Below are positions 38,255 to 63,200 of a DNA stretch of 64,000 nt, one piece after another. The position numbers and the translations under genes are program-made. Source of the stretch: Bispira polyomma (Eukaryota); NCBI GenBank assembly GCA_965649765.1, contig OZ287756.1:44888001-44952000 (forward strand), read 5' to 3'. The notes under the pieces were generated by a model that was not told the origin of the DNA, made no database searches, and saw only the letters and a list, made by a program, of their open reading frames with translations. The first letter of the stretch is position 1; every line of letters begins with the position of its first letter.

Positions 38255-38435
38255 CTTAATATATACATTCTCCTTTCACTTGTTTCCACTCATCCATCAA
38301 TATCTGTAAATCTGACAGTATTATTTGAATTTCATTTTCACAATTATCCAAGACAGTTTTTTGGGTATTTTGTCCATATGTATGATAGCATCCATTATGT
38401 ATAATGATACAACAGAACATAATTTTAATCAACAT
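38255..38435 (-). pseudogene. Orphan exon 1 of a type-A short collagen (donor destroyed, collagen exon absent)
   Basis: [55 protein letters not shown]. No GT donor. Intron homology continues to ~37840 and then ends. Confidence 0.85.
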
Positions 38436-39091
38436 TTTTTATTGATATTGCTTGGACAAATACACTGTGCTATTGTGGTTCCTGTGCTCAAGTAGTGATT
38501 GTCAAATCTTCCTTGTCATATATTTACCTGTTAAAATTATTTTTTGTATTTTTTTTCTTTTGACAAATTTATTTAGTTATTATGGTTCTTATGCTGAAGT
38601 GAAGCTTGTCAAAACTTCCTTGCCATATATTTACCTGGTGAAATTATTCTTTGTGAATGTTCTTTTATTTCTTAAAATACTTGATAATAAATCTCCAGTT
38701 GTTGCACACAGGTGGGAAGAATCCCCTCGGAAGACAAAAATGTTTAAGAAGGAATGAAGTTGTTTTGTCTATAAGACCATTGAAAATTGTTTATGTATTA
38801 TGATTACTTAATGTAATGGTAATAATACCCATGAAAATAATTTGACAGACACAATTCTATACCATTATGTACGTTTACCAGGGGATTGATTAATCTTTTC
38901 AAAGCCTCTAATGTTTGTTAAAGTAGTATATATCTATACATACATATTTATGTATATATATATATATATCTTTACAGCCATACATATCAGTTTACTTATT
39001 TGATAATTGTTTGATATTTTTGCTAACATTGGCACATATTTAAAAATAGTCAAAAGAGGAGTTACTTAGCAACTCTCAATCAAGCGTTATG

Positions 39092-40440
39092 TCATGGGCA
39101 TCTTCTTTCATGGCAATCAGGTCTTGTAGGTGGACAGTTATAACATCCAAAAATATCATCTTGTCCAGGTGGTCCAGGGGGGCCTTGTATGCCATTGAAT
39201 CCGTTCAATCCTTTGGGTCCCTGTGTACCTCTGTATCCTTTATACCCACTTGGTCCAGGAGAGCCACCATATCCAGTATAACCCTTTAATCCTGGTGGCC
39301 CTGTATTGCCTCTGTCACCTTTGTCCCCAGGAGGTCCTGTGGTTCCAGGTTGCCCTTTATTTCCAGTTGTTCCTGTATCACCAGGTGGTCCTGCTTCTCC
39401 TAGCTTCCCTTGAACTCCTGTGTCTCCAGTGTCCCCTTGTTCCCCTGGATCACCCTTTTTTCCCTTCTCTCCTTTTTCTCCTGTGGATCCACGTTGTCCT
39501 TCAAGTCCCCCCGGTCCTGTACTCCCACTTGCACCTGTATTACCCATTGCACCTGTGGAGCCAACATCACCTTTATCGCCAGGACTACCAGGTAAGCCAT
39601 GTGGACCTCTTACACCTGAAGATCCAGTGTAACCTGTACCACCTGTATATCCTGTAGCACCAGTGTCACCAGCAGGAGCTGTGTCACCTATAGAACCAGT
39701 TTTACCAGGTGGTCCGGTGTAACCTGTATCACCTGGCTTACCAGGTTCACCTCTTTGTCCAGGGTAACCAGGTGGACCTCTGACACCTGTAGCTCTAACT
39801 AGGCTTCCGTCTAAAAATAAACATTGGACAACTGATATTTATGTTATAAATTTGGAAACAATAAGTAGATGATTACCCATTTATCAGTGGTTTATTTGGT
39901 ATAATGTAAAATATGAGGCCAAATACCCACTAAGTATATAGTAGCTTCATCTGCATGGACAAGTTTGAAAATTCAGTAATATGCTAACAACCAAAAATGA
40001 CTTATTTTCCTAGGCAGGGGTAATAGAAGTATGTTGTTACATGTAATCTAATAACTTTGTTGCTTTTGCTAGTATAAATTATTTGTCAATAGAAACTATA
40101 GCACTAAATACGCCTCTAATAGAAATACCTGAAGAGCTATCAATGTAATTATATTCTCACATGATAATAATAATAATGATCTGGAAAATACGCTTTACAA
40201 TTATCCCTTATGTACAATGTGTTGGCTTTATAGGTAAAAACCAAGAAAACAATTGTACCACTTACCATATACTTTCCCCTTCACTTGCTTCCACTCATCC
40301 ATCAATATCTGTAAATCTGACAGCATTATCTGTATTTCATCTTCACAATTATCCAAGACAGTTTTCTGGGTATTTTGTCCATATGTATGATAGCATACAT
40401 TAAGTATAATGATACACAAGAAAATAATTTTAATTAACAT
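39092..40440 (-). CDS. Short secreted collagen, type A copy 1 (exons 40266-40440 and 39092-39810; 297 aa)
   Basis: ATG, signal-like N-terminus, G|GTAAGT donor and tttttag acceptor (phase 1). 70 Gly-X-Y triplets (one Gly>Ala). Tail [21 protein letters not shown]. Frame checked open. Confidence 0.9.
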
Positions 40441-43400
40441 TTTTTATTGGTATTGCTTAGACAAATGTATTATGTTATTATGGTTCCAATGCTCAAGTAA
40501 TCATTGTCAAAACTTCCTTGTCATATATTTACCTGTTGAAATTATTCCGTGTAAATGTTCTTTTATTTCTTAAAATACTTGATAATATCACTCCAGTTCT
40601 TGCAAACATGTCCAAAGACATAAATGTTTAGGAAGCAATGAATTGTTTAGTCTATTTAAAAAAAAATTATTGTTAATAATTAATCTATTGGTAATAATAC
40701 CCATGAAATAACTTGATTCAAAATAAATTCACCAGAAAACAGACACAATAAGATACCACTATGTATGTTTAGTAGGGGATTGATTAATCTTTTCAGAGTC
40801 TCTAGTGTTTGTTAGAGTAGTATACAAATATAATGAAAATGGAAATCTAAAACTGTTTGACATTAATATTATTCTATGTTTTGATGAAACATAGCCTTTT
40901 AAGGGTCTCTGTTGAAAACAGTCTAATTAATCTGGTATAATTAAAAATTATTTCATGTCTGGACTACTGGGCCCGTATTCACGAAAGGACTTTGCCAGGT
41001 CTTAGGCTTAAATCAGTATACTTTTGTGCTAGATTTAAGCCTAAGACCTGGCTAAATCCTTTTGTGAATACGGGCCCAGTACTCTTTATTTTCTTCCATA
41101 TTTCACTTATGTGAATCCCACTTTTAAATTAAACTTGTCCTTTTGTATTATATTGTATTGTAAATTTTTAACGCGCCTTATTGATGCTAGGCATCTCCTA
41201 AGGCGCAACATCAGAATCAGTCAGCCAATAGAAAAATCGAAAAACATAGCCAGGTCCTGCAATATGTAAGTCGTGCAATATTTAATATTAACCTGCCTAT
41301 ATGTATATGTAAGTGTGAGTGGGATTTTCTAGGATTTTATGGACCATGATCTTTGCCTTCCATTCTGAGTGTGTCTCACATCTCCTCCCCAAACCCTCAC
41401 ACTCTCAAGTTTTTTTGGGAGAGGTGAGAATATACTTATTTTGACAATTATACATTAACTTTGTGCTAGTTGACCCACCTTGTTTCCTAAGAGAGTGATG
41501 TTTTCAATGTGTGAATAAAATGCTAAAGTTTAGGGTAGATTAAACATGTCCTACAATATCTTAGTTACCTGTGTATAAAGAGGTTCCCCTAACACCCTCC
41601 CCTTTTTGAGAGAGAGTGCTTTCTTCAACTTGTGTGGTAGGCATTTTCAGAGGGGTTCAGTGACATTTGTAACTGACATTTTTAAAGGGCTAGAGCACCC
41701 TAAAGATTTACTACTGTTATGGTTATCAAGGACATGTAATGCTTGTCAAAACTTTCTTGTCATTTATTTGCCTGGTTTTAGTTGTTGCATAGAAAAAACA
41801 TTAAAAATAAATGAATATAAAGTTCAAAAAAGTTGCAATAGTTTTAACAATTTTCCTTTATGTGTATCAATATTTATGTTTGTGTATACTAATTAGTATG
41901 TTTGGTTTTAGGTAATGACATAGCCTTAAATATTAACAGCACGTAAATTAATTAAACTTAAGTCTAACAAGAGTTAAATCTAGGACGTTGTTGACATATT
42001 GCACCAAGTCAAAAATTTACTTCACTATTATTATATATAAGGTCATTGAAAATTGTTTATGCACTGTAATGAAATAATATCAGGGTAATAAGACCCATAA
42101 AAGTAATTTGATTCAAAATAAATGCTTAATCTTTTCATTAGAGTCACTGGAGTTTGTACAAGTAATATACAAACATAATAATAATTAAAATCTGAAACTG
42201 TAACATTTATACTTTTCAGAGTGATAAAATTAAAATACAACTTAAGTGAATAAATGTACCTTATTCTGTAATAATTTGCAAGTGGTAACATTCCAAGCAT
42301 GATAAACATTTGTAGATTAAAATAAAAGACATTTTGACGTGAATTTTACTTTAATTAAAACGGAATACAGATCTACCTTGTGAGAATTAAGAAAAACCTG
42401 ATGAGAAGTAAGTTATGCAATGAATAAAACTAAATGAAAAAAAATAACCATAAGCCAGTGTTTGTACTATGCCTTTTTTACTTGGTTTTAATGTTTTCTA
42501 AATTTGCTTCCTTTTTCACTGGGTAAACGTTTATGTCTAACTAATCATGTTTAATTTTTTCTGTTTTCATCCACTATTTTGAGGATATTACTGCATCTCC
42601 AGTAAGGTAAACTAGTCCATTCCAACTGAAAGAGTCATAGTTGCAAGTTTTGTAAATTGCCTGATTGACAAGACATATAAGGTGCTTATGCTCCAAAATT
42701 GTCTATTTATGGGAGAAAGTTATCACCATGGTGGATGATTGGTAAGCTTGTACAGGAAGCTTTTCAATTGACTTTTACAATTGTGCCCTAACAATTTGTA
42801 AAGGTTGACGATACTCAACTGGAGTGGTGAGGGTAAAACCGTCTTGACCACATCTGGTGAAGACTGACGGCATATTGACATGTATTAAGTTACTAGTCCT
42901 GATGAGAGAAGACAAGGGGGTTGTTCAAGTCTAATGGTTCTAAACACCATACTTCAAAAATCTCGGCTGCTCTATTGGTAAGTAAAGTATATTTAGGTAT
43001 GATAATAGTGCTGAATAGTGGACAGTCGGTACTAATTGACTTGGTACAGTGAAACTGATGTGAGGTCGTGGTTGGTATGGGGAGGGACAAATGTTTCATG
43101 GTGGGTGTGACAAATAGTTATATCACACAGACCAGGGGGTTGCCTTTTTAAGTGTTCTTCAGGAGCCAAAAATGACACCATCATTGCGCATGCATACATT
43201 GCATGAGTAGTGGTTGGTAAAACAAACGATGAACCCATTCAGAGGTCCTATTATTTAGAGGTTGTGGAGGGCACTCTTTTTATCAAGTATGTGCCAATTT
43301 CAGATAAAGAAATTGTAATTGTAGTAGCCTTTACCTTGTGCAGAACCCTTTTCTGATAGTTACAAATAAGGTTTATATTTAAAAATGTGAGGTTTTCTTT

Positions 43401-44330
43401 TTTTCGCTGTCTTACGTCTTGCGACATCCCCCATGCAACTTTTTTGGCTCCTGTGTTTCTCATCACTAGCATTTTTACAGCATAGTCAGTTGGGGCCTAA
43501 TGGCCACCATACACTACATATGGTGACATGTGACTCAGTTAACACAGTTGCACAAAACTATGTATTTAGTATGAATACTACATGTGGCAATACCCAACTC
43601 AGTACTCGCAATATATTTGTTGAAAAGTGCTGAAGTGGTTTCGTGGTTTTTATCTAATCAACGGGTATCAGGTGAACTTGTTTATAGGTAGAAAAAGATA
43701 GTAAGAATTAACGACATAATAATCGACTTAACTATTGACTAAAGAGCTTGGCAGGTAAACACAATGTCATTCAATTACCAATACTGATAAACTCTGGTTC
43801 TTGGGATAAAGTTTCCGTACCCAGTCCATGTACGTTCCTTTGAAATATAAGTATCTACAATATGAGTCACCAACTCCAAAGGTGTGAATTTGAATGAGAA
43901 GGCAGAGGAACACCAAGTCATTAAAATGGCACTCTTTGGGTTTTTATTAGTTCTAATACATCTACATAACTAAAATTAGTATTCTACTACTATTTTATGT
44001 ACAAGGTTTTGATATAATAATAAGTAACATCACAGTTAAGCTAATCACTAATGCACTTAACTGTGCTCAATAACAACATTTACAATAGTTACAATCATAT
44101 TATTCTCACATTAGTCAAGTTTGTATCATGCACTTAACTATCAAATTCACATACTAAAAGCAAGTTTATAAATAACACAGCTGCATGGATTAGTTAATGT
44201 AAGTAAGAACATGCTGCATTAATTATTTCATTGAAGTACATGCAATGTATACGCATTAATAATAAAAGATAATTATAAGACATATAAATGACAAATTACT
44301 GATATAAAAACGTATACATGTAAAGAAAGA
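39170..44330 (+). repeat. Segmental duplication, copy 1 (paired with ~59010-64000)
   Basis: Collinear, near-identical coding, intronic and intergenic sequence at an offset of about 19.7-20.0 kb. Confidence 0.95.
40965..41081. mobile_element. Palindromic MITE (~117 bp hairpin)
   Basis: tactgggcccgtattcacgaaaggactttgccaggtcttaggcttaaatc ... gatttaagcctaagacctggctaaatccttttgtgaatacgggcccagta. Confidence 0.85.
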
Positions 44331-45626
44331 TTGCCCCACTATAAGGTTAAAAGATTAAAAGAAATATTTTGAGTAATATATTGCACATTATGATATAGCT
44401 GTTTGTTTTAGTAATTTTCATCAGGACGACCTTCAGAAGTTTTTGCCTTGTGCAGCCCTGAATTCCAGAGTTCGGTAATTCGATGTTTATGTCTTGCTGT
44501 GTTTTCCTTAAGGTCAAGGCAACCCCCTTTACGAACAATCACAGCTCATTAAAGAACATATAATTGCGAGTTCAAAGCATCATGGCATGACATATATATT
44601 TTACTGGGTATTTATGTGAGGACAAAGCGTTGCTTCCATTGCATCTCACTGTCAGTTGGCATTTTCCCAGTGCCTTTGCTGTTGTAGTCATGCCACTTTG
44701 CTGGATTTCACAGTACCACTGGTATGAGTTTACCTCGCAAAATACAAAAGACAGTATGCGTTTGGTAATTGTCACAAACATAACATTCAATATACATAGG
44801 TATATAGTTAAGGTAACATATAGGTATACAAATACAGGGACTGGGGGGGGGGGGGGAATTTTAGCAGCACTTTGAGAGGCAGATAAATTTTGATGCCTTT
44901 TCTCTCAAAACCAGGGGTTTTTATAGGCAGAAGCCCAAGTTAGCAGGTGTATAATAGCTGAAAAGAAAACATTAGTCATTAGCCTGGCAAAACCTAAAGG
45001 GAGAAAAAGGGGTAAACAATCCATTAGTGTCACTTCTAGGACTGACATCTAGTGCGGCACCTCGCTCTAGTTTTAGTATGTGGTCATAATATGATTTTTC
45101 TGTGTACTCAAAACTCAATTGAACAAAGGGATATTTTGTAATAATCACTATTGCAATGTGCTAACAGTCCCACACAAACGTGTACAGTAAAATAACATCT
45201 ATGACACTAGTAGAATAATTAAGGTCTGCTGGCTGAAGGCTTTGAAAGGTAATCCATTGGAAGTGGAATTCTTTGAAAAATATGGTTCGATTTGCGGTTA
45301 GGTGTAGAATGATTAGATGTGTGATATATAGCTGATGAAATAAAGCAACAATATAATTTTTAGCATGTATTTGTGTAACAGTGCACAAAGTACAATATAT
45401 CTAGCAATAGCTCAAGTGGTTTATGTAGCATATATGTAGCATAACAGCAAAGCTCAAGTGTTTAAGTTATTGATAAAAACAATAACAATATTGTTATAAG
45501 TCAACACACTTTATGTTACTGGAGAATGTATACAGACATACGATGCCTGCACGACAGATATTGTATTTTATGTACTTTAATATATAAAATCATATTACAT
45601 TTTTGGTATGATGTATTCAGTTACTT

Positions 45627-47978
45627 TTACTGGTTGTGACACCCTATCGCTATTGTGTCTGCTCGACAACCTTTTGGTCCTGTAGGCCCTGTACTACCAG
45701 TTGCACCTTGTGGTCCTTTTGCCCCTGTTGAACCTGTATCCCCTTTAACTCCCCTACTTCCTTTGTAACCACTGTACCCTCGGGGTCCTCTAGGCCCTGA
45801 AGTACCAGGTGAACCTTTCTGTCCCTTTTGACCCTGATAGCCGATGTCACCTTGCATACCATCTGGACCTTGTATTCCAGGTAATCCTTGGTTTCCAGTG
45901 TTACCAATATATCCAGTAGAACCAAGCTGTCCCTTGAAGCCTTTATCGCCTAGTAGCCCATTGCCACCTTTTGCTCCCTTATCTCCTGATTGGCCCAGTG
46001 AGCCCTTTGTCCCAGCTGGATCTGTTAAGCCTCTTTGGCCAGTACCACCTTGCTGTCCTACAATTCCTGTTGAACCTCTAATCCCATTACTTCCTTCAGA
46101 GCCCGATATTCCAGCATTTCCACTTCTTCCGCTTGTTCCAGTCTGTCCAGACAACCCAATTACTCCATCATCACCTTTTTGACCAACTGATCCTGTACTT
46201 CCAATGTATCCCATATCGCCAATAAATCCTGTATTTCCTTTTACTCCAGTAAATCCTGGCAGACCAACAGACCCTCTTGGTCCAGGTTCTCCAGTCTGGC
46301 TTCTATCTAATAAAATAACATATTTAATGTTAATGTTAAAAATCAGCCAAAATTGTCCTCACTGTAATTTTAAGCTAATTGTTGTGAACTGCCAATATAG
46401 ATGTGATTTAGTAATGTAGATTTATAAAATATAACTGGCACATATTTCTGATTTTATAAGTCTGCAAAAATGATTAATCAGTTTTACAAAATGAGTTAAA
46501 GGAAAAACAGGTACACAATTGGTAAATAGTAAAGGTTAACATGAAGTAGATTTCAAAATATATCAAGCAAATATACACATGGAAAAATAATAAATATAGC
46601 ACCAAATTGGACTAGACCTAGCGCACCGGAGAACCTTTGCATATTTGTATCCACCAGAAAGGCAAAGCACCCTTTGTAGCAAGCACCCTAGCTAACACCC
46701 AGCCTAGAAGCCTATGATTTCCTACGGGGCATTTATGCTAAAACCTTAAATAGCACAAGTGGGTTTCACATTGGAAATTTTTGGTAGCAGGTTGTATGAG
46801 GGATCCAAGGTGATATTGGCCCACATCAAAAGATTCCCAGGCCATGATTTCCTATAGGTTGGTTTCACATCCAAAACATGTTTGACAAGAAATTAGAGGG
46901 ATATAGGCACTTTTAGGTTTAGCCATCCCCTTTTGACCTTGAAGGAGAGGCCTAAGGGCAAATCTGAGCACATAAAAAGATTCCCTGGTCATGATTTCCT
47001 AAAGGTTGGTTTATATACCAAACCTCTAGGACCAATGATAAGTGAGATATAGGCACTTTTAAGTTCGGCTATCCGCATTTGACCTTGAACAAGAGGTCTA
47101 AGGTCAAATCTGAGCGTGTCATGGTTTTGCCACTCGAATCTGTGGGACCAATAATAAGTGAGATATAATCAGTTTTAAGTTTGGTCATCTGCATTTAACC
47201 TTAAACGCGGGGCCTAAGGTCAAATCAAACCACAACACAAGATTTCCTGATCATGATTTCCTTTTGGTTGTTTCGGATCCCCAACCTGTTTGACCAATAT
47301 TCAGCAAGATATAAGCACTTTGGGAAAGTTTGGCCAAAATTGGTAACTTTGGGTACTTTAGCACCCTGAGGATGACATTGAATGAGGAGATTAAAGGTCA
47401 AATGTCTGCATGCTTATAAAGGACATATATATCCGTTAAAAATATCACCCGTAAAGAGATTCATCCTTCTACAGCTAAGAAACAGACACAGTTAAAATCC
47501 TAATTATTTTCAAAGAAACGCCCATGACGGCCATGTTGTTTTTCAAAATGAGGCAAAAAATTACTCCTAGACAAGCTTTTGTAATAAAAACATTTCCTGT
47601 AAATTTCAGGTGCCTAGGTTTTCCCAGGAGAGTGGTAACGGTAAAATCTCTACACACACTGATGCGGTGGCAGCGGCGGTGTAATGATACCTAATCCATA
47701 GTATCAACTGTAGTTTTCCAGTAGATACAATAATTCTTCTGTATACCGATTATTGTATCACTCCTATCACTGCTCACATACAACAAAATAACCATTTACT
47801 AAATGAAATTAGAATAAATACCTAAAATGTCATGTTTTATTTGTGTCCAAACACTCTTCATCATCTGTATATCCGATTTCAGCATCTGTACCACATCTCT
47901 GCAACTGAGAATATGAGGTTTTGTTGTGTATTGTCCAAATGTAGATGAAATACAAAGAAAAACTAAGAAAAACAACAT
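45627..47978 (-). CDS. Short secreted collagen, type B (exons 47822-47978 and 45627-46306; 278 aa)
   Basis: Exon 1 MLFFLVFLCISSTFGQYTTKPHILSCRDVVQMLKSDIQMMKSVWTQIKHDIL, G|GTATTT donor, ttattag acceptor, phase 1. 70 Gly-X-Y triplets (one Gly>Asp). Tail CRADTIAIGCHNQ*. Confidence 0.87.
46610..47712 (+). mobile_element. Helitron/Helentron-like non-autonomous element with internal ~130-bp tandem subrepeats, in the type B intron
   Basis: About 4 diverged units sharing aaggtcaaatc..aagattccc..catgatttcct..ggttggttt..gatatag..tttgaccttgaa. 3' hairpin gtatcaactg...cagtagatac. Confidence 0.5.
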
Positions 47979-48192
47979 CTTTGGCCTATCGTTATATCAA
48001 ATATTTAAAAGTTGTCATGTCCTTACTTACAGGGATTTGAATTCATAGTTAATGTATTCAGTCGACAAGAGTGTCAGTTATATAATATATTCGCAACTTT
48101 CCCAGGTCATAATATGTGTACTAATTGAATAAAGAGGAAGACAATTTCTATATCGTGGGCCTTAGTTTAGAGAATATGAGGAGACATCAAAC

Positions 48193-49340
48193 ATGTTAAA
48201 TATGCTCGCCTTTCATATTATAACAGTTTTAACATTATCATTTGTATTAGTTGCTGGTCAAGCAACTTTTCAGTTTGGATTATTCATGTGTAAAAGCCAA
48301 ATACAGTCCTTGGTTAATGGCATGGATACATTGAAAAGGGAATGGGCACAGGCAAAGAAAACAGTATCTGGTATAGTTTCAAATATACATAGTATGAATA
48401 TATACAATAAGTTTTAGTATAATGTCAATAAGGATAATAAAGTTGAATTATATCACCCTACTTTTTGGCATACTTAGCCCTTTTCTATAGTTTTTCAAAA
48501 AGAACAACAATTTTCTTGTTTAGCAAATATTCTGGTGACCTCAATATTTAATTGTGGGTCAATGGAACAAACTTTTACAGTTAGTAAAATGTTCAAAACA
48601 TCATATATTATTAGATATATAAGACATATTCTATTTTCAGAAGACAACTTAACTGGGGAGCCTGGACCAGTTGGCTTTGCTGGTCAACTAGGTGCAACAG
48701 GAGATACTGTAAATGTTGGACAACCCGGTGAAAGAGGCAAGCTTGGGACACAGGGTATACCGGGGAAAAGGCCCAGATGGGGTTGATGGTATTAAAGGCC
48801 TCTCAGGTCTGATTGATGATACCAGATTAGCTGGAATCAAAGGGTTTACTGGACAACAAGGTCCCAAAGAAATTAATGGTGATACTGGAGCAACAGGTGC
48901 ACATGGGATACAAGGTTCCAAGGGACCGTTAGGATCCAAGGGTAAACCAGGTCTTAAAGGTTTCAAAGGGGCGAGTGGGGAATCAGAATCACCAGGAGAT
49001 GAAGGTTAACAGGGGTTAGAAGGTATACGTGGAAATAAAGGCATTAAAGGTACAGAGGGAGAAAAAGGTGTAATTGGTCCAATTGGAGAAAATGGTGCCA
49101 GAGGATATTATGGTCCATCAGGTGATAAAGGTCCAGAAGGTGTTCCTGGACCACCAGGCTCTAGGGGTAACCGAGGGAACAATGGGGCTTCAGCCAAGGG
49201 CAATTCTGGTGATACTGGATACACAGGTCCAAGTGGTGAACGTGGAAGTACAGGACACACGGGCAAGCCTGGTCCGGCTGGTAGATATATATACTGAACA
49301 ATGGATTTCTGCAAAAAAACGACAGTTCTTATGCTACAGT
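48193..49340 (+). pseudogene. Short collagen, type E, pseudogene (exons 48193-48370 and 48641-~49340), head-to-head with type B
   Basis: Intact exon 1 (MLNMLAFHIITVLTLSFVLVAGQATFQFGLFMCKSQIQSLVNGMDTLKREWAQAKKTVS) and phase-1 intron. Frameshift near 48770, TAA at 49007-49009, several Gly substitutions, TGA at 49295. Confidence 0.85.
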
Positions 49341-53500: not shown

Positions 53501-53603
53501 CACAAGGGCTATGGGACAGGTAGACTTGCTTACACACACACATTAAAAACGCTTTAGTTTTTTAGCCAATCTTGTCTAACCTAGGATATAATAAGGTCTG
53601 GCT

Positions 53604-53815
53604 ACCTTGAACTCCTATGTCTCTAGTGTCCCCTTGTTCGCCTAGATCACCTTTATTTCCCTTCCCTCCGTTTCCTGTGGATCCACGTTTACCTTCAAGT
53701 CCTCCTGGTCCTATATTCCCACTTGCATCTGTAGTACCCGTTGCACCTGTGGAGTCAACATCACCATTATCACTAGGACTATCAGTTAAGCTAAGTGGAC
53801 ATCTCACACCTGAAG
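53604..53815 (-). pseudogene. Internal fragment of a type-A collagen exon
   Basis: Degenerate Gly-X-Y (STGATGTT..GNIGPGGLEGKRGSTG..KGNKGDLGEQGDT) homologous to 39410-39620. No flanking splice sites. Confidence 0.85.
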
Positions 53816-54285
53816 GTCAGGTAAAATGTTCAAATAATGAACAGAGCTGGTAGAAAGTGCTGTATACAGATGTCACTTTGGGTACATGATACCATCATCT
53901 GAATGACATAACGACCATTTGATACAATTATTTGACAAAACACTAAAATTATACGTAAATTATCAACTTTGACTAACATGTTACTCAAAATAAACCTAAA
54001 TGGTCACTATACAACAACAAACACTACAGCTGTGATGTAAGTGAACACTATCCTAAATATAGGAAAAATATTTATTTTCTCCATTTGAACCGAATTCCAG
54101 AATATATGAGATCATGTTTTTACTTGTTGATTTAAACGATTGGGCTTTGATACATATTTAAAATCTCTTTCTTATCATATATATATATCCCTTTTATAAT
54201 TGAACAATTATTTGATATTCTTATAATCTTATGACATAGTTACAAATAGTCAAAAAAGAGTTACTAGACAACTATCAATCGAGCT

Positions 54286-56133
54286 TTAGCTTAAAGTACA
54301 TCTAACGTTTACAGGGCAATGTTCCCTAGATGCTCAGATGTAGCAGTTTTTTCCAGGTGGTCCAGATGGACCTCTTTCACCCTTGAATCCTTTCAATCCT
54401 TCAGGTCCCTCTATACGTCTGTATCCTTTATAGCCACTTGGTCCAGGAGAGCCAGTATATCCAGTATAACCCTTTAATCCTGGTGACCCTGTATTGCCTC
54501 TGTCACCTTTGTCCCCAGGAGGTCCTGTGTTGCCCTTTATTACCAGTTGTTCCTATATCACAAGGTGGTCCTGCTACTCCTAGCTTCCCTTGAACTCCTA
54601 TGTCTCCAGTGTCTCCTTGTTCCTCTGAATCACCTTTATTTCCCTTCTCTCCCTTTTCCTCCTGTGGATCCACGTTGACCTTCAAGTCCCTCTGGTCCTG
54701 TATTTCCACTTGCACCAGTATTACCTGTTGCACCTGTGGAGCCAATATCACCTTTATCACCAGGACTACCAGTTAAGCCAAGTGGACCTCTTACACCTGA
54801 AGATCCAGTGTACCCTGTACCACCTGTATGTCCTGTAGCACCAGTGTCACCAGCAGCAGCTGTGTCACCTTTAGAACCAGTTTTACCAGGGGGTCCGGTG
54901 TAACCTGTAACACCTGGCTTACCAGGTTCACCTCTTTGTCCAGGGTAACCAGGTGGACCTCTGTCACCTGTAGCTCTATGTAGGCTTCCATCTAAAAATA
55001 AACATCATTTCAGTGAAAAACTATTTCATTTCAGTGAAACATTTTTTAAAATTTGTTCCAGATATTTCCAAAACATTGTTTAAATTGATCCATATCACCC
55101 CTTGAATTATAGAGGTCACAGAGCAGTTGAAATTTACTCTTAATAATTAGCAAATATTCAGAAAAAAAGGATTATTTTGTTTGTTTGCTTTTTCTTGTTT
55201 ATAAACCATTTTCCAACTAAGAGTAAATAGTTTATTAAAAGTAATTAATCATCTCGAGTAAAACCATACCTAACAAAACTCACATACTCTAACTCTGAAC
55301 TTCAAATCCAGGTTGTTTGAGATCCACAATTCAAAATTGATTTGATTGTTTACCAGAAATAAACAAAAATAAACATTTGACACATGATTTTCATGGTATA
55401 GATATGGATAAATTATTTAATGCTAAAAGAGCACATAAATGTTATGCATGGGATACAAAATCGGAAGGGTCTGTGTTTTAATTAGCTACACAAATCACAC
55501 CTCTCCAAGTCGACCAACCTATAGCTTTTCAAAAAAAAAACATTATCAAAATACTCATTCCCAGTAGTTTCCAGGGTATAATATGTCGTAAAATACCCAG
55601 TAAAGTACACGATAAAATATTGAGTAATTACTTAGCTTCATCTGCGTGGCCAAGTTTGCAAATTCAGGAGTTTACTAACAAACTGACATAATAACGGAAA
55701 GGATTTAAATGATACACTCAATGGCATAGGTACAGAGAATATATTGCTACACACAGTTCTGATTACTTGTCAGTTGAAACTATATCACTACATACGCTCT
55801 TATAAAAATAAAGATTCATTTTCTTATTTTATAGAAATATCGGTATTTACAAGATTAAACTGGAAGAGACAAAAACGGATCATACAAATTTAGGTTATGA
55901 AAACATAAAATACGCTTTACAATTATCTCATCTGTACAATGTGTTGGCTTTAAAGGTAAAACCCAACTAAACATTTGTACCACTTATCATATACTTTCCC
56001 CTTTACTTGCATTCATTCGGCCATCAATATCTGTAAATCTGACAGCATAATTTGTATTTCACCTCATTTTGTCCATATATATGATTGCATACATTGAGTA
56101 TAGTGAGACGTAAGAAAAATGTTTAATCAACAT
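54286..56133 (-). pseudogene. Type-A-like short collagen pseudogene (copy C)
   Basis: Exon 1 (55988-56133) has a deletion and a GT>AT donor. Exon 2 (54286-54991) has a +1 frameshift near 54650, an 8-nt deletion near 54530 and a TGA in the Cys tail (KNCYI*ASREHCPVNVRCTLS). Confidence 0.88.
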
Positions 56134-58935: not shown

Positions 58936-60284
58936 TTATTTTAATGGACAACCTCTATCGCAATGTATTCCATCAGGACAGTCAAAGCAGCGATGAAATA
59001 CATCTTCCCCAGGTGGTCCAGATGGGCCTTTTACACCATTGAATCCGTTCAATCCTTTGGTTCCCTGTGTACCTCTGTATCCTCTATACCCACTTGGTCC
59101 AGGAGAGCCAGTATATCCAGTATAACCCTTTAATCCTGGTGGCCCTGTATTACCTTTGTCACCTTTGTCCCCAGGAGGTCCTGTGTCACCAGGTTGCCCT
59201 TTATTTCCAGTTGTTCCTATTTCACCAGGTGGTCCTTCTGCTCCTAGCTTCCCTTGAACTCCTATGTCTCCAGTGTCTCCTTGTTTCCCAGGATCCCCTT
59301 TATTTCCCTTCTCTCCTTTTTCTCTTGTGGATCCACGTTGACCTTCAAATCCCCCTGGTCCTGTACTCCCACTAGCACCTGTATTACCCGTTGCACCCGT
59401 GGAGCCAATATCACCTTTATCACCAGGACTACCAGTTAAGCCAAGTGGACCTCTTACACCTGAAGATCCAGTGTAACCTGTACCACCTGTATGTCCTGTA
59501 GTTCCAGTGTCACCAGCAGGACCTGTGTCACCTTTAGAACCAGTTTTACCAGGGGGTCCGGTGTAACCTGTATCACCTGGCTTACCAGGTTCACCTCGTT
59601 GTCCAGGGTAACCAGGTGGGCCTCTGTCTCCTATAGCTCCAACTAGGCTTCCATCTAAAAATAAACATTGGAAATCTGATATTTATATTATAGATTTGGA
59701 AACAATAAGTAGATGATTACCCATTTATCAGTGGTTTCTTTGGTATAACGTAAAATATGAGGCCAAATACCCACTAAGTACACAATAGCTTCATCTGCAT
59801 GGACAAGTTTGAAAATTCAGTAATATGCTAACAACCAAAAATAACTTATTTTCCTAGGCAGGGGTAATAGAAGTATGTTGCTACATGTAATCTAATAACT
59901 TTGTTGCTTTTGCTAGTATTAATAATTTGTCAATAGAAACTATAGCACTAAATACACCTCTAATAGAAATACCTGAAGAGCTATCTATGTAATTATATTC
60001 TCATATGATATTAATAATAATGATCTGGAAAATATGCTTTAGAATTATCCCTTATGTACAATGTGTTGGCTCTATAGGTAAAACCCAAGAAAACAATTGT
60101 ACCACTTACCATATACTTTCTCCTTCACTTGCTTCCACTCATCCATCAATATCTGTAAATGTGACAGCATTATTTGTATTTCATCTTCACAATTATCCAA
60201 GACAGTTTTCTGGGTATTTTGTCCATATGTATGATAACATACATTAAGTATAATTATACACAAGAAAATAATTTTAGTTAACAT
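58936..60284 (-). CDS. Short secreted collagen, type A copy 2 (D) (exons 60110-60284 and 58936-59654; 297 aa)
   Basis: Same exon lengths (175 + 719 nt) and splice sites as copy 1. About 71 triplets with one Gly>Arg. Tail VFHRCFDCPDGIHCDRGCPLK*. Confidence 0.88.
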
Positions 60285-63200
60285 TTTTTATTGGTTTTGC
60301 TTGGACAAATGTATTATGTTATTATGGGTCCAATGCTCAAGTTATTATTGTCAAAACTTCCTTGTCATATATTTAACTGTTGAAATTTTTCTTTGTAAAT
60401 GGTCTTTTTTCGACAAATGTCCTTTGTTATTATTGTTCCTATGCTGAAGTAATCATTGTCAAAAAACTTTCTTGTCATATATCTACCTGTTGAAATTATT
60501 CCTTGTAAATGTTCTTTTATTTCTTAAACTACTTGATAATAACACTCCAGTTCTTGCAAACATGTCAAAAGACATAAATGGTTAGGAAGCAATGAATTGT
60601 TTAGTCTATTAATTTTTTTTTTATTGTGAATAATTAATCTATTGGTAATAATACCCATGAAATAACTTGATTCAAAATAAATTCACCAGAAAACAGACAC
60701 AATAAGATACCACTATGTATGTTTAGTAGGGGATTGATTAATCCTTTCAGAGTCTCTAGTGTTTGTTAGAGTAGTATACAAATATAATGAAAATGGAAAT
60801 CTAAAACTGTTTGACATTAATATTATTCTATGTTTTGATGAAACATAGCCTTTTAAGGGTCTGTTGAAAACAGTCTAATTAATCTGGTATAATTAAAAAT
60901 TATTTCATGTCTGGACTACTGGGCCCGTGTTCACGAAAGGACTTTGCCAGGTCTTAGGCTTAAATCAGTATACTTTTGTGCTAGATTTAAGCCTAAGACC
61001 TGGCTAAATCCTTTTGTGAATACGGGCCCAGTACTCTTTATTTTCTTCCATATTTCACTTATGTGAATCCCACTTTTAAATTAAACTTGTCCTTTTGTAT
61101 TATATTGTATTGTAAATTTTTAACGCGCCTTATTGATGCTAGGCATCTCCTAAGGCGCAACATCAGAATCAGTCAGCCAATAGAAAAATCGAAAAACATA
61201 GCCAGGTCCTGCAATATGTAAGTCATGCAATATTTAATATTAACCTGCCTATATGTATATATAAGTGTGAGTGGGATTTTCTAGGATTTTATGGACCATG
61301 ATCTTTGCCTTCCATTCTGAGTGTGTCTCACATCCCCTCCCCAAACCCTCACATTCTCAAGTTTTTTTGGGAGAGGTGAGAATATACTTATTTTGACAAT
61401 TATACATTAACTTTGTGCTAGTTGACCCACCTTGTTTCCTAAGAGAGTGATGTTTTCAATGTGTGAATAAAATGCTAAATTTTAGGGTAGATTAAACATG
61501 TCCTACAATATCTTAGTTACCTGTGTATAAAGAGGTTCCCCTAACACCCTCCCCTTTTTGAGAGAGAGTGCTTTCTTCAACTTGTGTGGTAGGCATTTTC
61601 AGAGGGGTTCAGTGACATTTGTAACTGACATATTTAAAGGGCTAGAGCACCCTAAAGATTTACTACTGTTATGGTTATCAAGGACATGTAATGTTTGTCA
61701 AAACTTTGTTGTCATTTATTTGCCTGGTTTTAGTTGTTGCATAGAAAAACATTAAAAGTAAATGAATATAAAGTTAAAAAAAGTTGCAATAGTTTTAACA
61801 ATTTTACTTTATGTGTATCAATATTTATGTTTGTGTATACTAATTAGTATGTTTGGTTTTAGGTAATGACATAGCCTTAAATATTAACAGCACGTAAATT
61901 AATTAAACTTAAGTCTAACAAGAGTTAAATCTAGGACGTTGTTGACATATTGCACCAATTCAAAAATTTACTTCACTATTATTATATATAAGATCATTGA
62001 AAATTGTTTATGCACTGTAATGAAATAATATCAGGGTAATAAGACCCATATAAGTAATTTGATTCAAAATAAATTCACATGAAAACATTGGATGGCATTG
62101 TGTGGCAAAAGAATGCTTAATCTTTTCATTAGAGTCACTGGAGTTTGTACAAGTAATATACAAACATAATAATAATTAAAATCTGAAACTATAACATTTA
62201 TACTTTTCAGAGTGATAAAATTAATATACAACTTAAGTGAATAAATGTACCTTATTTTGTAATAATTTGCAAGTGGTAACATTTCGAGCATGATAGACAT
62301 TTGCAGATTAAAATAAAAGACATTTTGACGTGAATTTTACTTTAATTAAAATAGAATACAGATCTACCTTGTGAGAAATAAGAAAAATCTGATGAGAAGT
62401 ATGTTATGCAATGAATAAAACTAAATAAAAAAAAATAACCATAAGCCAGTGTTTGTACTATGCCTTTTTTACTTAGTTTTCAGGGTTTCTAAATTTGCTT
62501 CCTTTTTCACTGGGTAAACGTTTATGTCTAACTAATCATGTTTAATTTTTTCTGTTTTCATCCACTATTTTGAGGATATTACTGTATCTCCAGTAAGGTA
62601 AACTAGTCCATTCCAACTGAAAGAGTCATAGTTGCAAGTTTTGTAAATTGTCTGATTGACAAGACATATAAGGTGCTTATGCTCCAAAATTGTCTATTTA
62701 TGGGAGAAAGTTATCACAATGGTGGATGATTGGTAAGCTTGTACAGGAAGCTTTTCAATTGACTTTTACAATTGTGCCCTAACAATTTGTAAAGGTTGAC
62801 GATACTCAACTGGAGTGGTGAGGGTAAAACCGCCTTGACCAATCTGGCGAAGACTGATGGCATATTGACATGTTTTAAGTTACTAGTCCTGATGAGAGAA
62901 GACAAGGGGTTTGTTCAAGTCTAATGGTTCTAAACGCCATACTTAAAAAATCTGGGCTGCTCTATTGGTAAGTAAAGTATATTTAGGTATGATAACAGTG
63001 CTGAATAGTGGACAGTCGGCACTAATTGACTTGGTACAGTGAAACTGATGTGAGGTCGTGGTTGGTATGGGGAGGGACAATTGTTTCATGGTAGGTGTGA
63101 CAAATAGTTATATCACACAGACCAGGGGGTTGCCTTTTTAAGTGTTCTTCAGGAGCCAAAAATGACACCATCATTGCGCATACACTACATATGGTGACAT

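Follow-up and report, generated by a model that had tools for sequence, protein, structure and literature searches.

Threonine-rich short collagens in a Bispira polyomma gene cluster and a genome-wide Gly-X-Thr collagen class

The window considered here is a stretch of 64,000 nucleotides from Bispira polyomma (assembly GCA_965649765.1, contig OZ287756.1, positions 44,888,001 to 44,952,000 of the forward strand). Judged from its sequence, the locus that it carries is a birth-and-death cluster of three types of short secreted collagen, termed A, B and C, whose genes are presumably expressed and whose products are presumably secreted. In the A and B chains, threonine occupies the Y position of the Gly-X-Y triplets (Y-Thr) three to five times as often as in the ordinary collagens of the same animal. 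Since many collagens elsewhere in the genome are far richer still in Y-Thr, the window chains are a mild form of a class that runs through the whole genome. The best overall explanation, to which we give an even chance, is that these short collagens form mixed trimers in which Y-Thr is O-glycosylated and the glycans contribute to stability.

Threonine at the Y position of the short chains

Each of the A, B and C genes is predicted to consist of two coding exons separated by a phase-1 intron, the first encoding a hydrophobic signal peptide, a cysteine and 3.5 heptads, and the second a collagen helix followed by a short tail. Both A1 and B1 lie on the reverse strand. Exon 1 of A1 (40266..40440) encodes the signal peptide, the Cys and a 3.5-heptad coiled coil and ends at a phase-1 GT donor; exon 2 (39092..39810) encodes a linker, a 70-triplet helix (39158-39787) and a C-terminal tail with 4 Cys, giving a model of 297 amino acids. 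The first exon of B1 (47822..47978) encodes a signal peptide, a Cys and a coiled coil homologous to that of A, and the second (45627..46306) a 70-triplet helix (45663-46292) and 2 Cys at the C-terminal end, in a model of 278 amino acids. Each helix comprises 69 Gly-X-Y triplets and one substituted triplet, with Ala for Gly in A1 (39671-39679) and Asp for Gly in B1 (46014-46022); additionally, Arg replaces Gly in triplet 1 of A1. At a helix rise of 0.286 nm per residue, the predicted length for 70-71 triplets is about 60 nm. Neither frame is interrupted, the splice sites are canonical, and both genes have a predicted signal peptide. No RNA run containing the sequence was listed; the three listed runs, from one study, cover the intron over 39060-40400 and contain no joints, and are uninformative on expression.

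An earlier, sequence-only reading of this DNA had counted 20 Y-Thr against 15 Y-Pro over the 70 triplets of A1 and 14 against 4 over those of B1, and both counts were reproduced exactly (Y-Thr shares of 29% and 20%). Its headline, that Thr outnumbers Pro at Y, is right as a count, but the margin reaches only modest significance in B1 (p=0.03) and none in A1 (p=0.50). Threonine is the most frequent Y residue in A1, B1 and C3, the latter being the only C copy found with an open frame and a GT donor (G000:C9:44,975,340-44,976,490, outside the window), yet it accounts for just 20-29% in A1 and B1, and in B1 lysine (13 Y sites) is nearly level with it. Thr shows a clear preference for Y over X (20 against 3 in A1, p=0.0005; 14 against 3 in B1, p=0.013). 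The Thr count is not explained by tandem repetition: A1 contains one array (41 bp, 2.3 copies) and B1 none. Furthermore, proline at X is avoided in Gly-X-Thr triplets (1/48 versus 28/160, p=0.004), Gly-Pro-Thr occurring 0, 1 and 0 times in A1, B1 and C3, respectively. Gly-Hyp-Thr peptides, in which Hyp is hydroxyproline, have given a helix-stabilising result. X-position Hyp is described in earthworm collagen (PMC8233474). Such stabilisation by earthworm-type X-hydroxylation was rejected for the present chains on the single Gly-Pro-Thr among the 48 triplets.

A comparison of the Y composition with that of the animal's own fibrillar collagens had been proposed together with those counts, and the frequency of Y-Thr in the short chains lies well above the fibrillar level. 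COLFI matches occur solely at C9:51.73 Mb and C13:7.33 Mb; these two genes have Y-Thr in 22/341 and 20/362 triplets, or 42/703 (6%) together, and in 22/326 and 20/347 under a stricter tract filter. Against 42/703, Fisher's test gives p=5e-8 for A1 and 2e-4 for B1. The two main type IV loci have 3/173 and 5/151, or 8/324 (2.5%), with p=8e-11 for A1 and 1e-6 for B1, and the giant Y-Pro collagens of contig C13, counted over parts of the genes only, have 75/1959 and 46/1249. Every one of these control collagens falls below A1 and B1, whose Y-Thr frequency therefore does not equal that of ordinary collagens in this species. Moreover, the A, B and C genes have neither the COLFI C-propeptide nor the helix of about 340 triplets in many small exons that marks fibrillar genes; none of the 20 genome matches to the C4 (NC1) domain of collagen IV and spongin lies at their locus; and Pfam returns only Collagen for them, with tails of 4-22 residues and no C-terminal globular recognition domain of the C1q, collectin or ficolin kind.

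Gly-X-Thr collagens across the genome and the probable annelid host

The genome census was seeded by a search with A1, which biases it towards Thr-rich loci, and 150 of 539 candidates were scored; a search seeded with Pfam contributed nothing but Y-Pro types to the loci examined. Loci at C3:64.43, C4:28.57, C5:87.06 and C6:83.79 Mb were removed as simple repeats rather than collagens. Y-Thr reaches 47-77% in at least eight other loci. The giant Gly-X-Thr collagen of contig C2 (G000:C2:81,050,472-81,093,042, reverse strand) has about 1,709 triplets in large phase-1 exons, with 77% Y-Thr and 12 Y-Pro; counted over 81.06-81.09 Mb, Thr fills Y in 1325/1731 triplets (76.5%), Pro in 0.7% and Lys in 0.5%. 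The corresponding Y-Thr counts are 277/583 at C6:77.98 Mb, 182/317 at C6:57.3 Mb and 223/420 at C2:48.17 Mb, while short genes on contigs C10 and C11 reach 53-63% and values of 20-38% occur at several more loci, of which some have EGF exons. The collagens of the genome are split between Y-Pro collagens with 0-9% Y-Thr and Gly-X-Thr collagens with 20-77%, and Y-Thr is inversely related to Y-Pro across loci. With such compositions, a class with up to 77% Y-Thr and less than 1% Y-Pro can hardly rely on Y-hydroxyproline. The Y-Thr of A1 and B1 is one third of that of the giant (p of 1e-16 and 1e-22), and the residues favoured at X in the Gly-X-Thr triplets of the window (Asp, Ser, Tyr and Ala) overlap the giant's preference for Ser, Ala and Asp.

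In the C2 giant, 22 of the 25 tracts open at an AG acceptor, and the predicted helix length is 1.47 micrometres. An N-terminal domain outside Pfam comes first, for which the ESM Atlas gave only leads below 0.9, and EGF-like exons and an exon for a membrane helix and cytoplasmic tail lie downstream on the same strand. If helix, EGF and membrane exons form one transcript, as we infer, the gene possibly encodes a membrane-tethered cuticle collagen of about 1.5 micrometres. This giant, which lies outside the window, is a more striking object than the window chains.

Several further loci were observed. The collagens at C6:77.98-78.01, C6:57.30-57.32 and C2:48.15-48.19 Mb are multi-exon genes with 47-57% Y-Thr, rich in Gly-Arg-Thr and Gly-Ala-Thr. 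A match to the N-terminal domain of the giant stands immediately upstream of the last of these, and a third copy of the domain is found at C8:58.79 Mb, with no Gly-X-Y tract in the 40 kb beside it. Clusters of short single-exon Gly-X-Thr collagens, mostly with a basic Lys/Arg tail, occupy C10:25.88-25.98 and C11:41.49-41.54 Mb; the exon starts of those on C10 resemble that of type A, and within the stretches examined around the short genes of C10 and C11, a profile of the A/B/C exon 1 detected no related exon. Collagen tracts with 20-30% Y-Thr at C1:21.12, C3:101.42, C2:84.00 and C7:61.12 Mb are directly followed by EGF-like or membrane-helix sequence. Two divergent giant Y-Pro collagens at C13:10.02-10.32 Mb have 36-40% Y-Pro, 7% X-Pro and almost no Y-Lys, and the initial 100 kb of one gene contains more than 1,950 triplets. 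As a speculation that we hold to be more doubtful than probable, two collagen chemistries may run in parallel in separate gene sets: Y-hydroxyproline giants on C13, and a glycosylated Gly-X-Thr repertoire reaching from 60-nm ABC heterotrimers up to the membrane-anchored, EGF-bearing C2 giant of about 1.5 micrometres. The giant would then correspond at gene level to the cuticle collagen of Riftia type, and the search for the Thr-specific collagen glycosyltransferase would have in the ABC trimer its smallest natural substrate that can be expressed.

The 19 best database matches of the mitochondrial COX1 (contig C75) are all annelids, at 73-76% identity, and the lineage is fast-evolving. In a tree of 44 rows, including 43 of 120 listed matches, the query falls among annelids beside a sabellid and outside a supported clade of molluscs, echinoderms and arthropods, so that an annelid host, as in the Riftia-type class, is probable, although the long branch keeps it short of certain. 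Genes for linkers of extracellular haemoglobin (erythrocruorin) were observed at C7:48.557-48.568 Mb; no haemocyanin match was found in the genome, which is a weak control. On the linker genes, the haemocyanin result, the COX1 matches and the tree, a molluscan host was judged less likely. No named orthologue of A1 emerged, as its helix returned generic collagens alone (up to 54% identity; 1672 matches at E<=0.001 among 7982 scored). The exon-1 profile, run against 1.84 billion representatives, gave 8 matches at E<=0.001, comprising two unrelated repeats and six true look-alikes (five A-like, one C-like) on ENA contigs that share a single length, 1,483,784 bp, and are probably one contig. Because of these look-alikes, the cluster is probably present, unannotated, in at least one other animal. 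A scan of JGI metagenomes with the exon-1 alignment found no relative among 107 pattern matches. The short A/B/C family is absent from the literature found and from named database records, subscription journals and supplements (e.g. PMC8789280) lying outside the search, and within the same limits no description of a membrane-anchored annelid Gly-X-Thr giant was found.

Cluster turnover, proposed chain association and a possible role of glycans

The cluster extends beyond the window to G000:C9:44.976 Mb. Its B and C genes stand head-to-head, with ATG-to-ATG distances of 215 bp for B1/C1 and 214 bp in each of the two pairs downstream; in the window, the short interval at 47979..48192 separates the divergent B and C start codons and is a likely shared promoter. 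On the forward strand, C1 has an exon 1 (48193..48370) for signal peptide, Cys and coiled coil and a pseudogenic exon 2 (48641..49297) with a frameshift near 48770, an in-frame stop at 49007-49009 and Gly losses. The remaining A copies are on the reverse strand. Exon 2 of A2 (54330..54982) is a pseudogene with several frameshifts and a broken exon 1 near 55989-56102, listed with a further A fragment near 53600-53850. A3 (exon 1 at 60110..60284, exon 2 at 58936..59654; model of 297 amino acids) has a 71-triplet helix with 21 Y-Thr, 13 Y-Pro and Arg for Gly at 59317-59325, and a tail with 4 Cys. An orphan copy of exon 1 (38268..38435), 88% identical to that of A, has no Gly-X-Y exon within 8 kb downstream. 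Tandem repeats were also observed, namely a ~39-bp array at 1545-2729 with long spurious open frames on both strands, a two-copy repeat of a 146-bp unit at 46822-47115, and a two-copy repeat of a 110-bp unit at 60304-60518, directly upstream of the A3 start, with similar sequence ahead of A1.

Pairwise ratios of nonsynonymous to synonymous change (dN/dS) in the helix are 0.34 for B1/B3, 0.59 for A1/A3 and 0.70 for B2/B3 (nine changes), the first two of which indicate purifying selection on the helix. These values bear on the idea that A1 and B1 are decaying duplicates whose composition was inherited from functional paralogues. The Gly-to-Asp change in mid-helix of B1, the Gly-to-Ala change and lost first Gly of A1, the pseudogenes C1 and A2 and the adjoining orphan exon would fit such decay. 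However, A1 and B1 retain uninterrupted frames, canonical splice sites and signal peptides, dN/dS lies at 0.34-0.59, and no open A copies other than A1 and A3 were found, so that we regard decay as very unlikely.

The exon-1 products suggest how the chains might associate. The heptad a and d positions are hydrophobic in 8 of 8 cases in all 12 exon-1 sequences, which are homologous and whose register was picked by eye. In all six modelled chains (types A, B and C), 32 residues separate the Cys from a helix of 70-71 triplets, whereas the number of C-terminal Cys differs by type (4 in A, 2 at the very end in B, 0 in C). A crude axial charge-pair score, compared with a shifted-register null, gives 3.5 for a B1 homotrimer, -0.5 for C3 and 10.5-11.5 for the best ABC trimers, against about 6.6-6.7 in shifted registers (p about 0.035). 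Because of the equal register, the head-to-head B and C genes and the charge complementarity, B likely folds in a heterotrimer, and we consider the association of A, B and C chains into one quite likely. This tempers the earlier claim that the Pro-poor B chain is marginally stable: its imino acids do amount to only 5.3%, but since B probably pairs with A and/or C, judging it alone as a homotrimer overstates the need for glycans.

In the preferred reading, the Cys-capped N-terminal coiled coil would select partner chains and register them into a mixed trimer whose ends Cys residues may clamp by disulfides. The ~60 nm helix would be held by a mixture of glycosylated Y-Thr (20-29%), hydroxyproline, arginine and lysine-acid salt bridges, and Tyr cross-linking might then bind the rods into an extracellular layer, e.g. 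cuticle, tube or mucus sheath. Such later cross-linking is suggested by the share of X sites with Tyr, 8.7% versus less than 1% in fibrillar and type IV genes. O-glycosylation of Thr in the window chains is judged reasonably likely from the sequences because the host is kin to Riftia and the genome holds near-pure Gly-X-Thr giants. The part played by the glycans in stability would be partial rather than dominant.

A strong form of the sequence-only reading would make glycosylated Thr the dominant stabiliser, as in Riftia cuticle collagen, with B in particular unable to fold without it. A run of 26 Pro-free triplets in B1 (triplets 5-30), added to its few imino acids, speaks for this, as do the lead of Thr at Y in A1, B1 and C3 and the averaged Y composition of an A1-B1-C3 trimer (Thr 23%, Lys 16%, Pro 12%, Arg 10%). 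The same trimer, however, has Pro, Arg or Lys at 38% of its Y sites; the helix is short, and a coiled coil flanks it on one side and, in A and B, Cys on the other; and its chains have only a third of the giant's Y-Thr. This strong form is held to be unlikely.

Rather improbable, too, is the opposite account, in which Thr is unmodified and provides hydration, while coiled coil, disulfides, Hyp, Arg and Lys-Asp/Glu bridges keep the helix together and Tyr cross-links lock it. Hyp-free bacterial collagens, which can be held by charge and Pro (PMC11923368), offer a precedent, melting at 36-42 C by means of charge and hydration (PMC8968730, PMC11923368, PMC7824840). Among the effects on stability described for KGD/KGE and Y-Arg, KGD/KGE is worth 15-17 C in host-guest peptides (PMC7824840); our chains have 4, 2 and 1 such motifs, and mixed trimers have 10-14 predicted axial pairs. 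Nevertheless, this account leaves unexplained the bias for Y over X, the avoidance of Pro at X and a class with 77% Y-Thr and 0.5% Y-Lys, and unglycosylated (Gly-Pro-Thr)10 is a random coil that becomes helical once galactosylated (PMC11923368).

Alternatively, the glycans would act not on helix stability but on the solubility, hydration or spacing of the secreted rods or on their recognition. In C3, Thr forms clusters at the ends (7 neighbouring pairs versus 2.6 expected, p=0.002), and the EGF and membrane-helix exons that follow several Thr-rich collagens of the genome hint at a surface coat. Against this stand the strict Y placement and the inverse relation to Y-Pro, which fit structural substitution, and the lack of clustering in A1 (p=0.12) and B1 (p=0.52); we rate it as very improbable.

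A number of observations weigh against the mixed-trimer reading with contributory glycans. Between paralogues, Y-Thr is kept at 18/21 and 13/15 sites, no better than Y-Pro (13/15, 4/4) or Y-Lys/Arg (13/15, 17/20), and the Thr sites of A line up with those of neither B nor C (p 0.65-0.9). Most copies are damaged: besides the pseudogenes C1 and A2, copies A1, A3 and B1 have Gly substitutions that their paralogues lack, B2 and B3 have a one-residue insertion, and copy C2 of type C has a GA donor. The charge score puts A2B over ABC, and homotrimers of A3 (10.5) and B3 (9.5) come near the best ABC (11.0-11.5), which leaves the chain composition unsettled. Additionally, no expansion of glycosyltransferase 25 was seen in the genome, where one weak match was found, and the COX1 branch is long. 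The sequence-only interpretation itself is supported in part; against it, the window chains stand at the low end of the Gly-X-Thr class and possess alternative stabilisers (Hyp, Arg, Lys-acid bridges, coiled coil and terminal Cys).

Significance and known systems

Collagens graded from 0 to 77% Y-Thr within one genome provide full sequences with internal controls, and the short chains are small enough for expression and melting with and without sugars. If the glycans are important, the strategy would be open to annelids in general and could lead to recombinant collagens poor in Hyp; if they are unimportant, the window simply holds an undescribed short-collagen family.

To our knowledge, hydroxyproline has a single well-known substitute in animal collagen, glycosylated Gly-X-Thr, which rests on work on the Riftia protein and model peptides. 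The Riftia cuticle collagen molecule measures about 1.5 micrometres, and O-glycans occur on Thr of earthworm and Nereis collagens. Glycosylated Thr is linked to the stability of the Riftia pachyptila cuticle collagen, and very long helices characterise the cuticle collagens of annelids (PMC11766948); the original work is that of Mann et al. 1996, as cited in PMC11766948 and PMC11923368. A 2025 paper on annelid genomes lists alvinellid and earthworm giant collagens and reports that siboglinid gene predictions do not attain such a length (PMC12403961); passages of another mention cuticle fibres without gene detail (PMC8789280), and those of a third contribute nothing on Thr (PMC11012932). The present chains share with Riftia the probable annelid host and, in A1 and B1, Thr as the commonest Y residue, above Y-Pro, though by a non-significant margin in A1. 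They differ in that the annelid cuticle type has a very long helix with globular ends (PMC11766948), whereas A, B and C have 70-71 triplets, a stop 4-22 residues past the helix and, in A1 and B1, 20-29% Y-Thr. The C2 giant does show the long-helix architecture and is the better Riftia match in the genome. Thr-glycan chemistry is a known annelid mechanism that, on the present analysis, is probably only contributory in the window chains.

Bacterial and phage Gly-X-Thr proteins of the BclA type likewise have Thr at Y in place of Hyp, with glycosylation reported for some (PMC8968730, PMC11923368) and bacterial Y-Thr figures available (PMC8968730); Thr triplets are reported to be enriched in microbes and not in human or eukaryotic collagen-like proteins (PMC11923368). 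The genes described here, in contrast, are animal genes with introns and with Y-Pro available for hydroxylation, and they avoid Gly-Pro-Thr, a typical microbial triplet. Horizontal transfer from Gly-X-Thr bacteria was rejected on the introns, the signal peptides and the many paralogous classes.

Collectins trimerise via a coiled coil, and COL4A1 and COL4A2 have a head-to-head gene layout. Cnidarian minicollagens, nematode cuticle collagens and C1q/collectin proteins resemble the present chains in small size, a signal peptide and, for A and B, Cys flanking the helix. In minicollagens, however, 12-16 triplets are combined with polyproline and Cys-rich domains, and in nematode cuticle collagens the blocks are short and interrupted (PMC11766948). 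In contrast to C1q and collectins, A, B and C are without C1q, lectin or NC1 domains, and their coiled coil, at the N-terminal end, falls below the cut-off for every Pfam family. With collagen IV pairs they share head-to-head partner genes, the two main C4-domain genes of the same genome, on contig C10, also being divergent; they differ from collagen IV in having no C4/NC1 domain, 70 triplets in a single helix exon, and Y-Thr at 20-29% versus 2.5%.

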